DNA of 46,055 nucleotides. It comes from Neolecta irregularis DAH-3. Taxonomy: Eukaryota. Below are positions 1 to 29,423 of this stretch, one piece after another. Positions within the stretch are counted from its first letter, which is position 1, and every line of letters begins with the position of its first letter. The translations under genes were made by a program, and so were the position numbers. The DNA lies in contig LXFE01000181.1 of NCBI GenBank assembly GCA_001929475.1, positions 1 through 46,055 of the forward strand, in the 5' to 3' direction. The notes under the pieces were generated by a model, which made no database searches, was not told the origin of the DNA, and saw only the letters and a program-made list of their open reading frames with translations.

Positions 1-46
1 CTCAATACTCAATACTCAATACTCAATACTCAATACTCATCTCATG
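1..46. repeat. (CTCAATA)5 tandem repeat plus CTCAT x2, running into the TyrRS ATG
   Basis: Five perfect CTCAATA units at 1-35, then ctcat-ctcatg; truncated by the window edge. Confidence 0.95.
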
Positions 47-4400: not shown

Positions 4401-7400
4401 CAATAATGCCCTTGCTTCTTCCCTTTCGTTCCGGTCATAATGAAAGAAATATGGATCGACTTGAATGACTTTCTCTGATTTCAACCTAAATCTACCAGGT
4501 TCTTGAGCAATATCTGGATGTTGATAATGAGCAACAGTATTTAAAACATCTTCAAAATCAACGTGATCAGACATTCGTTCAGGAACTGCTTTATGAATTT
4601 GAGAAAACGTCATCGAGCCAAAACATAGGACTTGAATAATTTCTCGAGCAATCTGTTGTTGGATAGTCCATTTGCAGATCTTGCTTCGTTCGCTAAATAG
4701 CACAATGACGAGAAACAAAACCTCCTCGAGCATAGCCACATGACGATGATCATCATGAACATTTGTTGAATACCACGGATCCGTGAAAAGCCATCCACAA
4801 ATATCAAAACGGTCGAGGAGTGTCAACAAGAAGTGGTCAGGCTCGAGAGTCGCAAGCGCAAATTGTAACAACATAAGATCCTTATCTACCGTGTACTCTC
4901 TTATGTCGATAACTCGATAGTGCATGTTCTGTTATTAGCAATGCTTGTATGGTATCGAGTACCTGAGCCTGCATTGCCATGCCGTTCCTTACCCAAAGAT
5001 TTTCTCTGATTTGTGCTTGCAGAACGCATACGCGTAGAGGAAAATCCACGACCAAAGCAAGAAGATAGTTGCGGAGCTTTTTGAGATCATAAAAGTCTCT
5101 TCCAAGGGCAATACTAAGTTCAGTGAGCCATCTTGAATTTGGAGAAATCTCTTGAAGATTATTAAGGTTGCCCATTAAAAGATCGACATCGGGAGCTTGG
5201 GCAGCATGTTGAAGTAAGGAAGCCAACAGCCAGTGCAATGGATGATGAAAACTAATTTCTAATTTGGAAACATCAAACTCTACGATTTTCCAAGGCTGCG
5301 CGTATTGATTTTGAGAATTTATATACCGAAGAGTGGAAAAGTTGGACCCACTGGGTGACTGTAAACTCTGGGAATCTCGGGACGTTGACCAGAGTATAGT
5401 ACGATGCAAAACCACACGAAAGGCTTGGTTTACAAGGACTTGCTGGGCATCGGTGAAGGCATCTGAGAGTAAATCGCAAAGACGAGCCAGTTGGAAAGAA
5501 ATATTGAAGGCAACGTTCCAAGAATCTGACTCAAACTCGACATGTTGAATAGATGCTCGCTTTTGTTTATTCATTCCTTGGAATAACCGAAGAACATCCA
5601 AGAATTGTTTCAGAAATCTAACTTCTTTTTGGAGAATAGGTTTGAAAGCATCGACTTTCAAGAGGTATTGAATGTCATGAAAGATTAGAAAGGCTCTCCG
5701 ACTCTTGAAGTGCGTGGATTCCGCGTCTATAGTAGCATCCAGATCAATTTGATCCACATCCTCTACCTGCTTACGGGTGTAAAATGTATAGAGGATGGCA
5801 GATAGCTTGGTAAAGAAATTATACCGCGTAACGAGCTCTTTGGCTATCGAGGGAGTTGTGAAAATTTGAACTGAGAAGTGAATAATAGAGTGATCAGGTT
5901 CGCGATCAGCAATCAGGAAGGCCCGGGCAAGTTTCGTGTACATGATAGCAAATCGTACGCCTGACGTACTTTAGCAATAATCTTTCAGAAAAGGAGCATA
6001 CCCATAACTTTCTTAAATTCTGTGTTCACAACCATCGAATTGATATAGAGCTCCCTGAGACTAATTCTCGCTTTTTTCCATAGACGTAAATCAAATAGAA
6101 GATACCAGTCTAGACGCATTTGACCTTCTCTCTCGCATGAATTTGGGTTAGACCAATAATTATCTGGGTGGACACTTTTATGCTTTGGTTTGTTACAAGT
6201 ATCCGAGGAAACATCTGGGGAGTTTTCCACAACAGTCAAAGAAGAGTTTGCAGGGCGGGCGGTGGGTAGATTTTCCAACGCGAAATCCATTTCGTCAGGC
6301 TCGCCTTCTCCTTCCATATCAACATCGTCATTGTCTTCGCTCATATCGTCCGGTGAATATTCCTCTTCCGAATCAAAGGCCGGTGCAAGACCATGCAGAC
6401 CCAATCCAGCATTCGAGCCATCTGAACCTCTGCGCCATTCACCACAGAGCTCCTCGCAAACAATCGTTCGCAGTAGAGATGCATCGTCACCGACTGTACA
6501 CATTACAATATCCTTTAGCCACTCAATAATGGTTCCGCATAACTCTTCTCGGAATACGTCTCGTGCAGAGCGAATAGTCACAGCCAATTTGATATGGTCT
6601 AGTAGTTTGGCTATTTGAAGCAATTTGTAGATGTCGGATGACTTTGCCACAGCAAAACGACCGAGTGCGTCAACTTTTTGTGCTGTTTCTTCCGCGAATG
6701 ATCGTTCACATCCAGTAGCCCGTCGTACTTGATGAATAACCTGGTCGAAAGAATGCTTCTCGTCGTTCCAGAGCACTGTAGTGTAGATAGCAGGATCAGT
6801 ATCGGCATTCGGCAGTCCATAAGCTGAAAAGTGCAGTCGCGATGCTCGCTCATCAATGCGAACATCCTCTGAAGTTGCTGGAAGTTTGAAGTTTTCTGGC
6901 GAGCAAGATAGGACGTCGAGCATGAAGTTTAGCACCCTGGCAATTGTTGACCGAATGGACCTCTTGAGATCTTCTGGAATTTGTGAATACTTTCCTGAAT
7001 CGGTCAAAGGATCTGATCCTGAGCCATCCAAACTATGTATGCTACAACAAACAGGGGTTTTCCAGGCTTCCAGGTCTCCACAGTCGCAACATCCACCATT
7101 AGATTTTTCGATAGACATTGATATTTCGTGGCCTTCGTGATTAGAAGCCTGAAAGCACCGTGCACATAGGACACAAGTATCATCAAGAGAACACTGCCTA
7201 TTTATCAGAGATATGTGAGTAAGTGATCTCGTACTTGCATCTGTATACCGCCTCACCTTTTCTCATGATATGACCACATGGCTTTCCGCGATGAGAAGGG
7301 AGATATTCCGCACCGTCAACAGAACCCTGTGCCTTTGATAAAACTGGGTTTTCTTCAAGAGACGGAATGCCATTCGGGAAGAAAAATCGCCAATATTCGT

Positions 7401-7762: not shown

Positions 7763-9451
7763 TCAGGGCTCGTGCAATTGCTCCTGCGAAATGCTGTCGA
7801 GTCCCGCTCTAACATCGTTAATAGTTTTGTCGGAAGTTGTGCTATTGGTGCCTATTCTAGTGAACGAATCTCGTCTGGTGGATACATTCCACTTGTAATT
7901 CTGTTCATGGGCGGGCTTACTAGTCAGGTACAGGATAGGACGTGAACATACTACAAGGCGATCATGCTTGCGAGCAACATTTTTCAGGCTTTCGAGGCCG
8001 ATAGCTTCTTCCCGGATAACGGTTGATTGAGTTACAACGACGTTGGTCGCTTTGTTGATCTCATGGTCAGTGATTACTAATAATGCTAAAACGAAACTAC
8101 TCTTAGGTCGTGTGAATCAAGTCCATATGTTAATCCTGGAGCATCCCACGTGTTTGAAATTTTGTTATGCACAGAAGGATTAAGGAGATGTCGTCTCTGT
8201 TCAGCCCGAGCATGGAGAGTAACCTATGATTCAATGATACGATCAGATATACTGAGTACCATAACCGAATGAGTGTAAAGCTTGCCTAAAGATCAGACTT
8301 GGTGGGTCATTTGAATTTACCAAGAGGAAACTGAAGCGCCATGTGAGTCATGTTCTCGGAGCTTTGAGCAACGTAGAACTAGATGGTATGAGAAATGCTG
8401 ACTTGTGGCCAAACATACTATTGTATCTAATACGGCAACAACCGCACTGAGGAACCCAGTTTCCATAGTCAGACGAACAAGTGAGTTCAAGATACTAGAT
8501 GTATTAGAGGGATTAGGAATATTCTTTTCTCTTTTCTACCTGTCTCACAGGGTCAGAGTAAACTGTGGCAAACGATATACCTGTAGTCAAGAATCCTGTT
8601 TTCGACCGATAGAGAAGAATTGTCAACACAGTAGTAAGGCCAACATCAACGACACCTCTGGTCAAATCCAATGGACGATATGAACATACTCGCAGGAACA
8701 AGCCAAACGACGACTTCGACTTTGACATGGGAGACAGTGGACATCCGTCCGACTCTGGCCAAAGCTGCAGCAAGAACAAGGGAACTAATTTGGTAAAATC
8801 TTTGTGTAGTAGATTTCGTACGAGATGAGGCAGAGGATTACGGAAGGCACAAAGATGGCCAAATAGAGCCATCTTGCCGTGGTATGCCGACGCATAAAAG
8901 TCCACGTTCTGTGGATGAAGAACGATTGAACGAGGAAGGCGATCATTCCGTTCAATGCTGGTTCCGTCCAGAAAAGCCAGTTGGTAATATCGAAATAGTC
9001 GAAGTCACCAAAGTGTTTGGCATAGTTCAGGTACAACAAGGAACAATCGCAGCAAGCTAAGCTTGTTCATTGATAAACTTTTGCGGGAATATACTTTGCA
9101 AAACATTTATCACGTAGAGAATCCCGACATACCATTTCATGGATGTTTTGTCTTCCGTGAATATGTGAAAGTAATTCCAGGTTTGCCTGTGGTCAGAACG
9201 AATCACTACAGATGGAGGTACATTGTCAGCATACCCATGAAGAAGATATTGATAATAATGCCCTGTGAAGATATGAGTTTATTCTCAGATAGATAATACA
9301 AGCATATATGCTCCGAGAGAGGCATCTGTATCAGAATAGAAAGCCAAAATCTGATAGTCAAATGTAGCAAGCGTGTAGAGGTTATTACTGAAGAATTGAG
9401 TTGAGCATTACTTTGGGCAATTGCATCAACGAATGCAGGTGCCAGTGGCAT
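7763..9451 (-). CDS. Multi-pass membrane protein, DUF6534-like (about 12-13 introns, including a 4-nt microexon)
   Basis: Spliced product contains LVQSFFIHRTW, WLVPASVVDVGLTTVLTILLYRSKTGFLTTDSILNSLVRLTMETGFLS and GKLYTHSVMVTLHAR, matching my recollection of the DUF6534 consensus. About 7 hydrophobic segments. The 3' end is less certain. Confidence 0.75.
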
Positions 9452-10417: not shown

Positions 10418-10601
10418 AAAAAGAGGGAGTAAATAGCTGGTGACTTCCGGAGCCGCTTGTTTTTCGGAGGGAGGAATGATAGATGAGAGAGGAAAAGAGG
10501 CAGGTTGTAGGAGCGGTGAGGTTCCGCGGTAAAGGTAATTACTTGAAAAGGTTGTGAAAATTGTCGCAGGAGAATCGGTTCCGAAACGTAGATATCCACC
10601 A

Positions 10602-10639
10602 TTACGTCACCGCCGGTGCCCTTTGGGGCCATTCACGTG
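10602..10639 (+). promoter_or_regulatory. Candidate CRE/ATF site (TTACGTCA) and E-box (CACGTG) upstream of the histidine kinase
   Basis: Exact motif matches at 10602-10609 and 10634-10639. The motifs are short and function is untested. Confidence 0.3.
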
Positions 10640-10664
10640 GCCCGAGGTCTATTCGAGGAACGGC

Positions 10665-13600
10665 ATGCTAACCTCGACTCGCATATTTGATTATCCATCG
10701 CAGCCGCCAATGGCCGAGGAAAAAGCACTTGCTACGCATGAATATACTGCGCGCGAATGCTTGGACCTGCTCGTCGCGACTCTTCATGAGACATACGAAT
10801 TTGATGGACATTCATTTCTGGTGCGGTCTGTCTCAGCGCTAGATGCCTGGTTAGTGCGCGGCAGACACCGGGTATCGCAAATCCTCGTAGTCGCAAAAAT
10901 ATCACCGCATGTCGCAAAGACAGAGCGCGAATACCGTGCACTAGCACGTTTACAGTCAATGGATACAGCTGGAGCAGCAGCAATATGCCATGTGCGAGAA
11001 TTGCACCGCCTGTCAAACGGCCTCGCAGTAATCATATTTCATGACCACGGCCCAAACGGCCTTGCAGAATGGGACGGCTCCTTCTTGCCAATCTCGTTAT
11101 TCTTGGATTTTGCAATCGGCGCATGCGACTGCCTTGATTTTGCGCATTCGAATAATTATGTCCATGGCGAGGTCCGCTCGGATAGTTTTCACTGGGATGT
11201 TGCAAACCGAGTAGTGCGGCTGGCAAACCTCGGAACAGCAAACAAGAGCTTCGTGAGCAGTCTCGCTTCCCAAAACTGGGGATCGCTCTCGTCGGAGAAT
11301 GGTATAGAGGGGCGGCTCATGTTTCTTTCCCCAGAGCAAACAGGCCGCACTGCAAACGAGCCCACCTACAAAACAGACATCTACTCGCTAGGTGATACCC
11401 CTCTTGTAGTGTTTAACTGATCGTTGTGTGCAGGGATCCTATTCTACATCCTCCTGACGAAACAGTATCCCTTTGTCGGGTCATCCATAGAAGTGCTACA
11501 GGACATCTTGTCAAAACGCCTTCCTGCAGCACATGAAATACGGCTCGACACTCCCCATATTTTTAGCATGATCATTGATCGAATGACCGAAAAACACCCC
11601 GAAGCACGCTACAACAGCATCGGCGGAGTGAGAGAAGATTTTATCGAATGCCGGTTGAGGCTTGTAGAATCCGCAGAACCTGAAAGCGATATCTTTGAGC
11701 TGGGAAAACGAGACGTCTCAAGTCATTTCGCAATACCCAACAGACTCATCGGAAGAGCGGCAGAAATTCGCCAGGTGATGTCTATCGTTCGCAAAGTAGC
11801 CAGGCGGCACCACCACTCTCACATTAATCAGCAGGAATCTCAAATGCAATGTGAACTTTCAGATACCCGAGTAAACACTGGATCCAGCTCAACTGAATCT
11901 GGATCAAGTGAATCTTCATCATCAACAAAGTCTAGTCGCTCCTCTGGCGTTCGCTCTCCTGATACTCAAAGCATTCTCGGAAAAGGTCGTTGTGAAGTTG
12001 TTGTGTTGCATGGATCAGCCGGTATCGGCAAATCAAGTTTAATTCAAACTTTGCGCAGCAACATTCGACAATTAGGCTATTTTGCCTCTTCAAAATTCGA
12101 TCAATCTCAACAAACACCCTATAGTCCTATACTGCGAGCATTATCTTCCCTACTAAAGCAACTCCTCACCGAATCTGAGGCCATCATTACTGAATTCTTC
12201 ATCGGACTAAAGAAATTCCTCGGACCACAATGGGGTCATATCCACACATTACTGGATCTCGTGCCAGAACTAAAACCTGTCCTGGCCGCAGAAACAAATT
12301 CAGTGCAACTTTCACGATCAAATTATTCTTATTCTGATCAATTTCACACAGCATCACCGGTCGGCGACGGTACCTATGCAAGTGTAGGCTCAGCAAGTGC
12401 AGCACACGTTGGCGAGCCTGTTTATAGTGGTGGAGCAAGACTGCGTTTCTTGAACATTTTTCTCGATGTTCTTCGTATGTTGTCTCAGACCAGACCAATC
12501 ACCTTATTCCTCGACGATCTGGAATCTGCAGATTCAGCTAGTCTCGATCTTATCAAAAGCATACTACGATCCAACATTTGGATGACTTTTATCATTGCAT
12601 TCAGAGACGATGAATCTATGATGACAACTGCCAAATCAATTGTCGAAACCGATGCCTGTCGACAAACCTGGATAAAGCTAGGTCCTCTTCTTCGATCGTC
12701 AGTAGCCGAACTCGTCTCCGACACACTTCACCAAAAGCCCAAGCAAACTACCTTTTTGGTAGACTTTCTTTATAACAGGTCTGCCGGTTCTCCTTTTGCT
12801 ATACAAGAGATGCTATTGAAATTACATCGCTCTCATTGTTTCCGGTTTGATCGCGAAAGCCGTATATGGCTTTACAACCCTGCAGAAGTTGAAATGGAAT
12901 TACAGCATAAAAGACTTGGCGATACCATCGATTCAAGCTTTTTACTAAACCGATTACGAGAATTACCTCAAGCTGCGCAAGAAGTTCTCCTCTGGGCTAG
13001 TTTTTTGGTACTCCAAGATTTTCCCGATCTAGTGCTAAACTTTTAGGGAGATACGTTCAGCTTCTCAGCTGTGGAGAATTTAATCACTTGTCAGCCAAAC
13101 ACCGATCCATTAAAATCTTCTGGCTCGGGAGACTCAGGAAGACGTTGCGTTAAGTCAATCGCTTTGGATGGTCTCCAAGCAGCTTTAAATTCCAATCTTG
13201 TCGTCTCTGAAGATAATGATACAAACAGATTCCGCTTCGTCAACGAGCAATATGTGAAAGCTAGTCAGCAATTAGTTGACAAAAACAAAAGCCCCGAATC
13301 TATTCATCTGGCAATAGCCCAGGCTTTGATGTCCGAAGATAACTACAACCCCTACACCATCGCAGAGAATATTTCTAAAGCTCTACCGTTGATCTTAATG
13401 AAAGAAACCCGTCGGGAATGGAGAGATATATTATTCGAAGCGGTCGAGAAAGCCTCAGATTCAGGCGCACATGAAAATTCCCTAAAATACTCGCTTCTTT
13501 TGTTGCAGCTGCTGCAAGAGGATCCATGGGACGAAGAGAACCCTGATGTTGACTATCAAGAAACACTTCGTTGCTATCTGCATTGTGCCAAGTGTTATTG

Positions 13601-16600
13601 GTGGAACGATATGACTGAAAAGGCTTTACACATTTTGGATCTCATTCATCACAAGGTCAAATCTCCAATTGATCGAGCAGCCGCCCTTATAATCGAGAAT
13701 CGCATTCTAATTCTACAGGAAAGGTACGGCGAAGTTGTCGAACGGTTCTGCTCTTGCCTGGGCGACCTTGGACTTGATCTTAATCTTGAGCCAGAGAGGC
13801 AATATTTAGAGGATATGTTTGAAGAGACTTGCCAGAAAATAATTGCTACTGGTTACCCGCAAATAATGGAATCAGATCCGATATCCGATGGCAAATTGTT
13901 AAGCATATCAAACTTGCTCCATGAAGCCTCGACCGCTGCTTATTGGAGTTCTCCTAGTTTCTTCTTTTACCTCAATCTCCTAATGATACAATTCTATCTC
14001 AATAATGGCTCATATCCAGCATGCGGTGTTGCATTTCTGTATTTCGGCGCCACTGCTATTGATAGATATGGTATGATACAGTTTGGGATAGATATGGGGA
14101 CCTTGGGTAAGGATATTCTGCAACATGTAATATATGTTTTCGCACCGGCTGATGTTTTAGAATGAGAATCAAGCTATCAACGCACGGGGTTTGTTATGCT
14201 ACTACAACTCGATTTCACATCTTCGGGAGCCTTTGTCAGCTCAGCTCGAAGGTCTTTCCGTATGTCTTAAATTTTCAATATCAGCTGGGGATCGAATAAC
14301 TGCAACACTCTGCTTGTCGTCGCTGGTTGCAGCTCGGTTATTCGCTGGCGTTCGTCTCGATGATATACTTTCATTTTCAGATAACGCCAACCAAGAGCTT
14401 ATGGCTTGGTCATGTGGTTCTGAAGGTCGCAACTTGCTTCTCGCAATCATACAGTGTATCAAAGCACTTAGCGGAAGAACTCCCAATCACGATCCGAGAC
14501 ATATCTTTAGTAATTCCCACTTCGATCAGCAATCTTTTGTAGAGAGGCTTCGGGAACGCTCACCGATTCCCGAAGTACCTCTCAATTGGTTCAACGCATT
14601 CGGAGCTAGCGTGTTTTATCATTATAGACATTACGAGAATGCACTGGAAGCAGGAGAGTACTGCTTTGTTACTTCTTCATTCCATCTTAGGTATGTTTCA
14701 TGTATCCAAAACCTTGTTTACAGGTAGCCATCGGCATACATGCTATGGTATCTTCTTCCAGTCGCTCGCTGCTGTTCAAATACTTCGCACCATTCGTTCC
14801 AGTGATAACCGTGCCGAGATTTTGAGGAAATATATACAACGTAACCAGAATCTCATAGACAGTTGGTCGAAGGTGTGCCCGGAGAATTACATCATTTGGT
14901 ATGATCTCGTCAACGCCGAACTTCAGTCTCTTGAGATCGACTTTAAAGAAACAGCATTATTGTATGAAAAAGTCGCGAAATTGTCTCATGAAAATGGGTT
15001 TTTGCAAGAAGAAGCATTGGCCTATTGCTTGCAAGGAGAATTTTACATACGCAACGGACTTCCTTCAATAGCTCGTAGGCTTTTGCTGGATGCCTGCCGG
15101 ATTTACACCCGGTGGGGAGCCAAGGGAATTTCTGCTTCGCTTTCCTCGATTTACGACGATTTCTTATATGACACCGGAAAAGTGGACATACTTGACCGAT
15201 ATACGCAGACGGAGTCATCGAATATCGAGTTTACGGAAGATTCATGTATCCCACATGAGTTAGTTTCAATTAGCTCTTCACAGCAGTGTCGAGGCTTTAC
15301 TCAGTCGGATCGTAATGCATTCTTTAATGCCTTTGCCCAAATCGATCATGATCATAGCCTCAATTCGACAAACATAAACGACGATACGGTGACATCGCTT
15401 GACATCATCGACCTCAATTCAATAATAAGTTCTAATCGGATTATCTCGAGTGAAATGAATATTGAAACACTTTTGAAACAAATGGTCAATATTATTGTTA
15501 AGAACTCAGGCGCAGAAATATGTTCAATAGTGGTGAAGGAGGATAAATCTTACGCCATCGCAGCACTCGGTACGCACGACCAGTGCATCACATATAAACC
15601 TCCACGTCCCTTGCTCCACCATGATGCAACTGTATCGGTCGAAATTATAAATTATGTGATACACACCCGCGAAGGTTTATTGCTAAACGATTCATTGTAC
15701 GATGATCGCTTCGCAATTGGTTCATGGTTTCGACAAAATACCTCGGGAAAGAGTGTTATATGTCTGCCGATTACTCACAAATCGACACTTGTGGGTTGCC
15801 TTTATGTTCAAGCTCCGGTCAATACATTTACCCATAAACATATGCAAGTTCTATCAACCCTTTCTTTACAAATTGGAATCAGTATTACGAATGCGTTGCT
15901 TTTCAAGAGCGTCCAGAGAGCCACAATGGCAAATATATCTATGATCGAAACACAAAAGCGAGCTCTTCAAGCGGCCCAAGAGGTATATCAAATTTGACAG
16001 ACCTTTTTAAATGATATTTTAGAGCGAGGCAAAATATGTGGCTGTTCTCGAGACAATACCCTGCATCATCTGGACGGCCGATCCTGTTGACGGAAATTTT
16101 GACTATTTCAATGCTCAGTGGTGGAAATTTTGCGGCTCCTCTTCTCCTGAATATGCCAAAGAGCACTATTTAGAATACCTCCACCTGGATGATCGCGAGA
16201 TATTTCGAAAAGCCATGCCAACGGCCGTCCTGAGTGGTGTGTACCCAGAGATCGAGGTCCGAATACGCAGAGAAGATGGAAATTATCGATGGCACACGTG
16301 CAGGAGTACAGCCCTCAAGAATGCGACAGGTGAAACAGTCAAATGGATTGGCGCTTTAATCGATATCGATGATCAAAAGCTGGCGAAGGAGGCAGCTGTT
16401 GAAGCAATGAACCTCAAAGCGAATTTCCTGGCAAATATGTCTCACGAGTTACGTACACCTTTTTCTGGATTTTATGGAATGCTTGCTTTACTAGGCGACA
16501 CCAACCTGGACTTGGAGCAGCGCGATATGGTTATCACAGCAAAACAGAGCTGTGAAATGCTTTTGCAAATTATTGACGATTTGCTCAACTTTAGCAAACT

Positions 16601-18227
16601 CGAAGCTGGAAAAGTCGTTCTCTATCCAGATACTGTGTTTCCCGTCGAATATCTCGTTGCAGATTGCATCGAGCTTATCCAACCATTGGCTGGAAATAAA
16701 GGATTGGACTTGGCATATCACATTGAAAAGGATGTACCCTCCCAGTTGAGTGCTGATAGCAATAAACTACGACAGTAAGTTTTTCTTCTAGGCATATCTT
16801 ATTCATAGAATTATCACCAACCTCCTTGGGAACGCCGTCAAGTTCACTAACTCTGGCTTTGTTTGCATTCGATGTTCATATAGCACCTTGGGTTCTCATG
16901 ATGACGATTGTTTCCTTCGGTTTGAGATACAAGACAGTGGAATTGGTAGCCTTCTGTGTATAGGAAAGAAACCTGATCTAAAAGGAATGTCACCAGAAGA
17001 CACTAGGTCGCTCTTTAAACCATTCAGTCAGATCGATGGCAGTACTACGCGTGTTTATGGTGGCACTGGTCTCGGTTTATCGATATGTCTCGAAATATGT
17101 CGGTTAATGGGTGGAGAAATTGGAGTCGAAACCAAGGCCAATGTCGGATCTACTTTTTGGTTCTACATTCGATGTCGCAAGCGATTGAGTCGAGCTATCT
17201 CAGCAAATATTGAGGAGGAAGTTCGCGCCCTTGAAGGAATTCAGCAATCATTGAGCAAGAATCGAGTTATTCTTGCAACTCCATCACATTTTACTCCCCA
17301 AATGCTCGAAGCATGTATAGCGAGGCCGACAATCGAAAGGGATACTTCTAAAGTCCATGGAAATTTACGGCTTGCGAAAGACAACAGATGCCCATACAGT
17401 CTTTTGATTTGGGACTCTTCTGGAGAATCTTCCTATTCTTCCTTATTACAGATTCTTGGTGATACGGAGCTTGAAGATCTTCAAATCGTCTGGATTTTCA
17501 CACCCTTGGTACAATCTCAGTCTTCTCAAGGAGATTCAAACTTACATAATTTTTCGGTTTACGAAGAGCGAGTTTTACGTTTGTCAAGACCAATTCGAAG
17601 ATCAAAACTTTTTCTTTCTTTTTCCAAAGTTCTCGCGAATTTGAATCAATATGTACCAAGAAAGGCATCGAGTAGTGGTTTTTCGGCGATATCGTCCACC
17701 AATAGGCGCTCATCAGTTGGCGGGGCTTTCAGCATACCTGAGTTAGAAGTACTAAAGGGGCTCAGATCGCTCATAGCAGAAGGTGAATAGGCACTCCGTC
17801 ATATTACAGCTAACCAATGGGTAGACAACCTTGTTGCTCAAAAGCTTCTCTATAAACAACTCACAAGGCTCGGTCTTGCGGTGGATTGCGCAAACAACGG
17901 GCTCGAAGCAATAAAACATTTTCAGTCACACGAGTCCGGATATTATTCTATATTTTTCGCCGACAATCATATGCCTCTGTGCGACGGTCTGGAAGCAACT
18001 CGGCAAATTCGTGAGATAGAATCTGAACGACAAGCAGAAATGAATCTGCCAATAATTGCACTAACCGCTGACATACAACCTGCTGCAATGGAAAAATGTC
18101 TGGAGGTTTGTTTTCAAATATCACACCATCTTCTTATGACGTCTAGGCGGGAATGAATAAATATCTCACCAAACCTCTGCTTCAGCATTCTCTCGTGAAT
18201 ACTATACGACAATTTTTGTTGATCTAG
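10665..18227 (+). CDS. Group X hybrid histidine kinase (S/T kinase-like, AAA, GAF, PAS, HisKA, HATPase, receiver), Chk1/Mak2/Mak3-like; 9 introns
   Basis: SPEQTGR..TDIYSLG kinase-like region, P-loop GSAGIGKS, GAF region (SVICLPI..GCLY), PAS (YRWH..KWIG), FLANMSHELRTP, NLLGNAVKFT, DSGIG, YGGTGLGLSI, receiver IAEDN..ADNHMPLCDG..YLTKP. Start may be 10665 or 10710. Confidence 0.93.
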
Positions 18228-18294
18228 GACATCACTCTGCATTTTTCCACTCGCGTTTTCACCTCAATTTTTTCATTTTGGTTTTGGTTGTTCA

Positions 18295-18366
18295 TTTTGG
18301 TTTTGGTTTTGGTTTTGGTTTTGGTTTTGGTTTTGGTTTTGGTTTTGGTTTTGGTTTTGGTTTTGG
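18295..18366. repeat. (TTTTGG)12 microsatellite
   Basis: Twelve perfect hexamers, plus two more at 18276-18287. Confidence 0.97.

Positions 18367-25487: not shown

Positions 25488-29423
<3,936 letters not shown>

Follow-up and report, generated by a model that had tools for sequence, protein, structure and literature searches.

A putative four-base internal exon, very probably required in a DUF6534-type membrane-protein gene of Neolecta irregularis

Introduction

The stretch of DNA analysed here comprises 46,055 nucleotides (nt) of Neolecta irregularis DAH-3 (assembly GCA_001929475.1, contig LXFE01000181.1, positions 1 to 46,055; the whole stretch is called the window below) and carries on its minus strand a split gene for a DUF6534-type membrane protein. 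The question raised by this locus is whether an exon of only four bases, ACAG, is read into the mRNA of that gene. An earlier note, made from the letters of the sequence, had placed ACAG between two introns of ordinary size, had taken it to be required for the protein, and had proposed that it might be spliced recursively or in a set order and so act as an on/off switch. The best explanation of the data given below is that ACAG is a genuine 4-base internal exon, which on sequence comparison is very probably both real and needed (we put this at roughly 85%), and that it is probably included constitutively. Its inclusion in the organism's own mRNA is what we infer from the sequence. The switch fared less well.

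The candidate micro-exon and its flanking introns

The features on which the argument depends are as follows.

7763..9451, minus strand: whole coding region of the gene for a DUF6534-type, predicted seven-helix membrane protein, from spliced alignment to the related protein P0001 and full translation
8581..8655, minus strand: upstream exon, 75 nt, with the 3′ end ...ACT ACA G, so that its own final four bases are also ACAG
8544..8580, minus strand: upstream intron, 37 nt, phase 1, donor CAG/GTATAT, acceptor GAG
8552..8556, minus strand: CTGAC, a branch-like site within the upstream intron (A at 8553, 9 nt ahead of the intron end)
8540..8543, minus strand: putative 4-nt exon ACAG, from spliced alignment, isoform enumeration and a family profile
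8538..8542, minus strand: CAG/GT, holding a second AG 4 nt past the GAG acceptor and adjoining the next donor
8495..8539, minus strand: downstream intron, 45 nt, phase 2, donor CAG/GTAGAA, acceptor TAG
8419..8494, minus strand: downstream exon, 76 nt, with the 5′ start T ATC TTG AAC (..ILNSLVRLTMETG..)

With a slash at each splice boundary, the minus strand reads ...TTGACTACAG / gtatatcg...ctctgaccctgtgag / ACAG / gtagaaaag...ctctaatacatctag / TATCTTGAAC, and the codons at the junctions are ...TTG ACT ACA G / gtatatcgtttgccacagtttactctgaccctgtgag / AC AG / gtagaaaagagaaaagaatattcctaatccctctaatacatctag / T ATC TTG AAC. ACAG gives bases 2 and 3 of the codon for Asp218 and bases 1 and 2 of that for Ser219, and the peptide with the four bases included is ...KTGFLTTDSILNSLVRLTMETG. 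On leaving them out, the junction becomes G/TA TCT TGA and the product ends in ...TTVS at codon 219 with an immediate stop, which is the outcome the earlier note had foreseen; its boundaries for the exon (8543..8540) and the two introns (8580..8544 and 8539..8495) are also reproduced exactly from the sequence. ACAG would thereby be an internal micro-exon in the sense of PMC12230235 (15 nt or less, between the AG acceptor and the GT donor of two separate introns), and one whose omission breaks the frame and makes a premature stop. Each flanking intron has the full set of signals typical of this gene, namely a GTA donor, a length within 34-45 nt and, as had been claimed, a branch-like site of its own: CTGAC in the upstream intron, and in the downstream intron two copies of CTAAT, whose branch-like A residues are at 8504 and 8513, 9 and 18 nt from the intron end. 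The GAG acceptor at 8546..8544 is the first AG past the upstream branch-like site, 9 nt from the branch A, and that A lies 14 nt from the next donor. The only unusual trait of the case is its compactness, with 37, 4 and 45 nt in a row. On comparing the two introns for signs of duplication, 16 of 37 shared-base columns were identical (in a 45-column alignment), which is no more than common splice signals would give.

The gene as a whole runs from the ATG at 9451..9449 to the stop codon at 7765..7763 and encodes 399 amino acids (aa) in 14 exons (63, 51, 41, 92, 235, 95, 75, 4, 76, 58, 26, 123, 108 and 153 nt) without internal stops. The 13 introns are 38, 37, 35, 38, 37, 34, 37, 45, 40, 35, 36, 41 and 36 nt long. 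The model comes from a spliced dynamic-programming alignment of P0001 against the minus strand, in which introns of 20-300 nt were accepted in every phase provided that they ran from GT to AG; this returned 12 introns of 34-45 nt and, unprompted, the 4-nt exon at 8543..8540. The first exon and first intron (9388..9351) were added afterwards on the basis of the frame and of the N-terminus of a second relative, P0002, which aligns from model residue 13. All 13 introns start with GTA, and their acceptors are TAG (6), CAG (3), GAG (3) and AAG (1). A CTRAY branch-like motif lies 6-19 nt ahead of the 3′ end in seven of them, and a looser YTNAY is present in the remaining six. It may be noted that in two other introns confirmed by P0001 (8689..8656 and 7951..7916) an AG with its G 4 nt past the branch A is bypassed and the next AG is used. 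These bypassed AGs and the choice of GAG at the micro-exon fit a single rule, whereby a GTA donor and a branch site are followed, from about 6 nt onwards, by the first AG.

Some side observations belong to the same gene. Its intron regime (34-45 nt) is unusually compact for a fungus. Two further very small exons are present on the minus strand, of 26 nt (8260..8285) and 41 nt (9222..9262). At the intron acceptor in 8060..8100 (minus strand) the model has Ile314, which is absent from P0001 and is either a true one-codon difference or the mark of a slightly different junction in the relative. A tblastn search of P0001 within the window for paralogues matched only the DUF6534 gene itself.

Agreement with related proteins

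P0001, found through the translation of a larger upstream exon, is an unnamed PF20152 protein of 376 aa (source jgi), known from one contig that is 1226 nt long. Of the 376 columns aligned between P0001 and the gene model, 355 (94.4%) are identical, with one gap; for P0002 the figure is 195 of 350 (55.7%). Across the junction P0001 reads TTDSIL (...KTGFLTTDSILNSLVRLTMETG) and P0002 at the same place STDSLI (...KTGFISTDSLIDKLIRLAMETG), so both relatives carry the two residues to which ACAG contributes. The coding sequence of P0001 amounts to 1128 bases, and the same span in the window takes 1579 nt with 12 introns (451 nt), 9 of which are of a length not divisible by three. As a contig of 1226 nt is shorter than the 1579 nt that would be needed, the contig of P0001 must be free of introns, and we take it to derive from the spliced RNA of a close relative.

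The wider family was examined in an alignment of 153 rows, 10 of them with a gap at the junction and 143 without. In none of the 153 is there an insertion between the columns of T, D, S and I, and the D column holds D in 104 of the 143 non-gap rows. Shorter protein fragments were also searched for over the junction; among 9 candidates, none matched at E ≤ 0.001.

The search for relatives of near length (206-658 aa, in a collection of 5.8 billion proteins) gave only P0001 and P0002, which are mutually 56% identical. The next relatives of full length, from a library of 1.84 billion representatives, share 21-36% identity, and P0144, a C-terminal fragment of 125 aa, shares 50%. Such a small number of close relatives suggests that the lineage of the gene is sparsely sampled.

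Enumeration of splice solutions

All solutions with one or two introns (GT or GC donors, AG acceptors, introns of at least 20 nt) were enumerated within 8600..8470. There are 14 open solutions, 9 of which keep the downstream frame, and only the one with the micro-exon yields TTDSILNS. The other eight put a net +1 to +19 residues in place of DS (400-418 aa against 399). These nine isoforms were scored against an independent profile built from 148 distant family members, with P0001, P0002 and the fragments P0003 and P0144 left out. The micro-exon isoform, that is the full spliced model, has the highest score at 297.7 bits; the best alternative reaches 286.8 bits (10.9 lower) and the other seven 264.0-273.5 bits. 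The ranking by alignment score is the same, with 1843 against 1825 for the next best when compared to P0001, and 1022 against 1004 for P0002. Hence the requirement for ACAG in an intact protein, as first claimed, is upheld by the peptides of both relatives, the spliced alignment, the lack of insertions in the family and the best profile score among nine isoforms.

Several points weigh against the exon and are to be set beside this agreement. The transcript support is at the protein level only and comes from a sequence that is 5.6% different, and the derivation of P0001 from a transcript is something we infer from the length of its contig (1226 nt) alone. The acceptor is GAG, with a CAG 4 nt downstream whose use destroys the frame, and both donors lack G at +5. 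Also the serine position is variable in the family (D 42, S 21, T 14, A 11); the pattern TGFxxTDSxxxxLxRxxxETG given for it earlier is therefore sound as to its D, while its S was overstated. Finally, a frame-restoring exon can arise by chance. The 86-nt stretch between the flanking exons was shuffled 100,000 times in its 82 inner bases, with the GT and AG ends fixed, and some open, frame-restoring internal exon of up to 30 nt appeared in 20,518 shuffles, so that the mere existence of such an exon is weak evidence. The exact peptide TTDSILNS appeared in only 119 of the 100,000.

Competing explanations

One rival to a plain exon is a regulated switch, in which the gene is turned on or off either by competition between GAG (8544) and CAG/GT (8540) or by controlled skipping of the exon. 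Two AGs 4 nt apart with opposite outcomes would suit such a device, and a regulated micro-exon has been reported in Xlr2 of Trichoderma virens (PMC11121469). But RNA folding across 8590..8485 is unremarkable and offers no unusual structure (z = +1.37; 188 of 200 shuffled versions form structures at least as stable), and a conserved extra element was not seen. Also, ordinary gene models of Coprinopsis cinerea commonly contain exons of this kind (PMC12230235). Nothing in this analysis points to a regulated switch, and we regard it as improbable.

The recursive part of the idea can be examined directly. The juxtaposition AG/GT that characterises a recursive splice site is present as CAG/GTAGAA at 8540/8539, and joining ...ACAG to GTAGAA would restore G/GTA. 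A recursive splice site is nevertheless not supported as an account of the exon: stepwise removal and direct removal both lose ACAG and lead to the stop, and a functional mRNA needs the GAG acceptor. The exon itself begins with AC and rebuilds no donor, and use of CAG/GT removes ACAG and leaves a stop-containing mRNA, so the recursive on/off switch of the earlier note is not borne out. A kinetic form of it can be imagined, in which GAG at 8544 gives productive mRNA and the zero-length recursive site CAG/GT at 8540 gives stop-containing mRNA that is cleared by nonsense-mediated decay. If this were true, the cell would set the level of a candidate receptor through the choice of AG; we consider it just as improbable as the regulated switch at large.

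In a stwintron, one of the outer intron's splice signals is split by an inner intron, and that signal exists only after the first excision. This arrangement was tried for the locus and rejected, as excision leaves either CAG-ACAG or ACAG-TATC and creates no signal, and both introns are complete beforehand.

It is also conceivable that ACAG is normally skipped by a single 86-nt intron (8580..8495), whereupon translation stops after ...TTVS and the gene is dead or silenced through mRNA decay. The donor at 8580 and the acceptor at 8495 are both good sites, only one splicing event is called for, and CAG/GT at 8540/8539 would give the same skipped product in two steps. Yet the rest of the gene is intact, with 399 codons, 13 GT-AG introns and no other stops, and P0001, a relative taken to be expressed, carries the two codons and shares 94.4% identity with it. 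The 86-nt intron would be about twice as long as the longest in the gene and would have to ignore an internal branch site and the first AG. We hold this to be quite unlikely.

The best of the alternatives in the enumeration dispenses with the micro-exon and depends on another donor.

8568..8573, minus strand: donor GTTTGC, which with the acceptor at 8495 gives one 79-nt intron and the peptide TTGISILNS, 10.9 bits below the micro-exon isoform

This isoform is open and in frame, only one residue longer, and second best by both the family profile (286.8 bits) and the comparison with P0001 (1825). Its donor, however, is not GTA as in 13 of 13 introns of the gene, its 79 nt compare with 34-45 nt for all 13 and are about double the longest of them, and the good GTA donor 7 nt upstream must be ignored. 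P0001 and P0002 read TDS and not TTGISILNS, and an extra residue at the junction is found in 0 of the 153 family rows. For these reasons we consider it very unlikely. The weakest candidate, a single 52-nt intron (8580..8529) that leaves part of the downstream intron as coding sequence with EKNIPNPSNTSS in place of DS (net +10 residues, 409 against 399 aa), is open, in frame and uses a GTA donor, but it is hardly credible, since it scores 273.5 against 297.7 bits, must bypass four AGs past the branch site, makes an insertion seen in none of the 153 family rows, and retains a stretch that resembles the 3′ end of an intron (CTAAT ... TAG).

A proposed splicing route

If ACAG is a constitutive exon, its retention could be explained by intron definition with sequential removal of the two introns. 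Each intron has its own GTA donor, and a branch-like site with an AG 9 nt on, from which it would be recognised across the intron; for introns this short intron definition is the expected mode, and the exon itself would need no recognition. The spliceosome would choose GAG at 8544, the first AG after the branch site, and ACAG would stay in the RNA. The retained ACAG would in turn place CAG directly ahead of the next donor, giving it a CAG/GTA context. With just 14 nt between the branch site of the upstream intron and the downstream donor, the simultaneous presence of two spliceosomes is unlikely, and the introns most likely leave in turn. On this analysis the splicing would consist of two independent intron-defined events, one after the other, and either order would lead to the identical mRNA. 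Ordered splicing in this plain sense, which had also been part of the original suggestion, is plausible.

Protein family and predicted structure

The translated stretch 8317..8493 matches positions 25-66 of the Pfam DUF6534 profile at 18.8 bits, which is below the cut-off; the stretch begins with the downstream exon and extends past its 3′ end (8419) into the next intron and beyond. The relatives pass the profile (PF20152, cut-off 28.2 bits) with 56.5 bits for P0001 and 58.1 bits for P0002. An AlphaFold model of P0001 made with 71 relatives (mean predicted local distance difference test score 79.2, predicted template modelling score 0.74) has seven predicted long helices. In this model the K-T-G-F loop lies at residues 188-192, and the micro-exon codons, which correspond to D196 and S197 of P0001, would fall just past it, where the sixth long helix (193-226) makes its first turn. 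When the P0001 model was compared with PDB folds, nothing matched at E ≤ 0.001; the hits ranked highest, starting at E = 6.7e-3, belong to generic seven-helix receptors and rhodopsins.

DUF6534 proteins have been put forward, in a preprint, as a candidate new class of G-protein-coupled receptors (GPCRs) in Basidiomycota (bioRxiv 10.1101/2024.11.25.625238). Like those candidates, P0001 scores above the Pfam cut-off and has seven predicted helices and the conserved K-T-G-F..T-D...R.T..TG block. Unlike that set, the nearest relatives beyond P0001 and P0002 are merely 21-36% identical, and there is the lack of a PDB match at E ≤ 0.001.

The surrounding window

The window, an ordinary piece of fungal-type chromosome, carries among its genes a Tyr/Trp-type tRNA synthetase, a UBR1-type N-recognin, a large GAF-PAS histidine kinase, a phosphoglycerate-mutase-like gene, L24e, fumarase, a DEAD-box helicase, UTP20 and a HeH/MSC inner-nuclear-membrane protein. 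Rfam and tRNA scans of the window gave no matches. When reading frames of the other genes are joined ab initio, a GTA intron of 31-42 nt can be fitted at many of the junctions, with several solutions each, so that these are not measured introns; candidates lie at 16775..16808, 27329..27368, 28991..29026 and 6001..5961.

Other observations on the window concern the following features.

10539..18156, plus strand: very large multi-exon gene for a hybrid-type histidine kinase (AAA_16, GAF, PAS, HisKA, HATPase_c), its frames apparently joined by introns of 34-42 nt such as GTAAGT...TAG at 16775..16808
18276..18366: hexanucleotide repeat TTTTGG in 15 copies, a run of GF dipeptides in one frame, just past the last long histidine-kinase reading frame (17791..18156, to which no domain was assigned)
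1..39: perfect 7-nt tandem repeat CTCAATA, 5.6 copies, about 140 nt ahead of the tRNA-synthetase frame

Comparison with known systems

The closest parallel is from C. cinerea, an Agaricomycete. Its long-read annotation contains 1,165 gene models (about 9%) with an internal exon no longer than 15 nt, and in 835 of these models omission of the exon leads to a premature stop; the sizes recorded go down to 3, 2 and 1 nt, and the long reads show exons of 1-15 nt to be frequent in Agaricomycete genes (PMC12230235). As in C. cinerea, ACAG would be an internal exon of at most 15 nt between short GT-AG introns, but the basis there is long cDNA reads and here the protein of a relative, and the introns here are shorter still at 34-45 nt (PMC12230235). 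Another basidiomycete, Phanerochaete chrysosporium, was described in 2005 to have micro-exons and many introns of 45-55 bp in its P450 genes (PMC1184071). These genes share with ours the many small introns and very small coding exons; unlike ACAG, their smallest reported exon is 6 bp (2 aa) and in frame, in another gene family (PMC1184071).

Outside the fungi, human MPC1 also has a constitutive 4-bp exon that is not a multiple of three and is essential for the frame. That exon is reported to rely on long flanking introns with a strong exon-defining region (PMC9929638); ACAG, flanked by only 37 and 45 nt of intron, is more likely to depend on intron definition. For a single-nucleotide exon of Arabidopsis, the authors argue for intron definition with the introns removed in turn, as two spliceosomes cannot act together (PMC4674806). 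The same reasoning of sequential removal applies to ACAG, except that the Arabidopsis case is a 1-nt exon in a plant gene and was experimentally tested (PMC4674806). In Caenorhabditis elegans, short flanking introns are described as freeing micro-exons from special requirements (PMC8378409). Recursive splice sites and recursive-splicing exons (PMC6224609, PMC6110457) resemble our locus in the AG/GT juxtaposition of CAG/GTAGAA at 8540/8539, but the host "intron" here would be 86 nt and not many kilobases, and an exon that starts with AC rebuilds no 5′ splice site. In two further papers (PMC3990503, PMC4014442) micro-exons appear solely as a setting of the read mapper, and no paper on micro-exons in DUF6534 genes was found in open-access literature text.

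In practice, a gene finder unable to place a 4-nt exon would truncate or mis-frame such a DUF6534 gene. The locus would also offer a clean natural substrate, with complete introns of 37 and 45 nt set four bases apart, for asking how close to each other and in which order intron-defined events can run. Set beside these systems, ACAG adds a further example to the known class of micro-exons and opens no new question.

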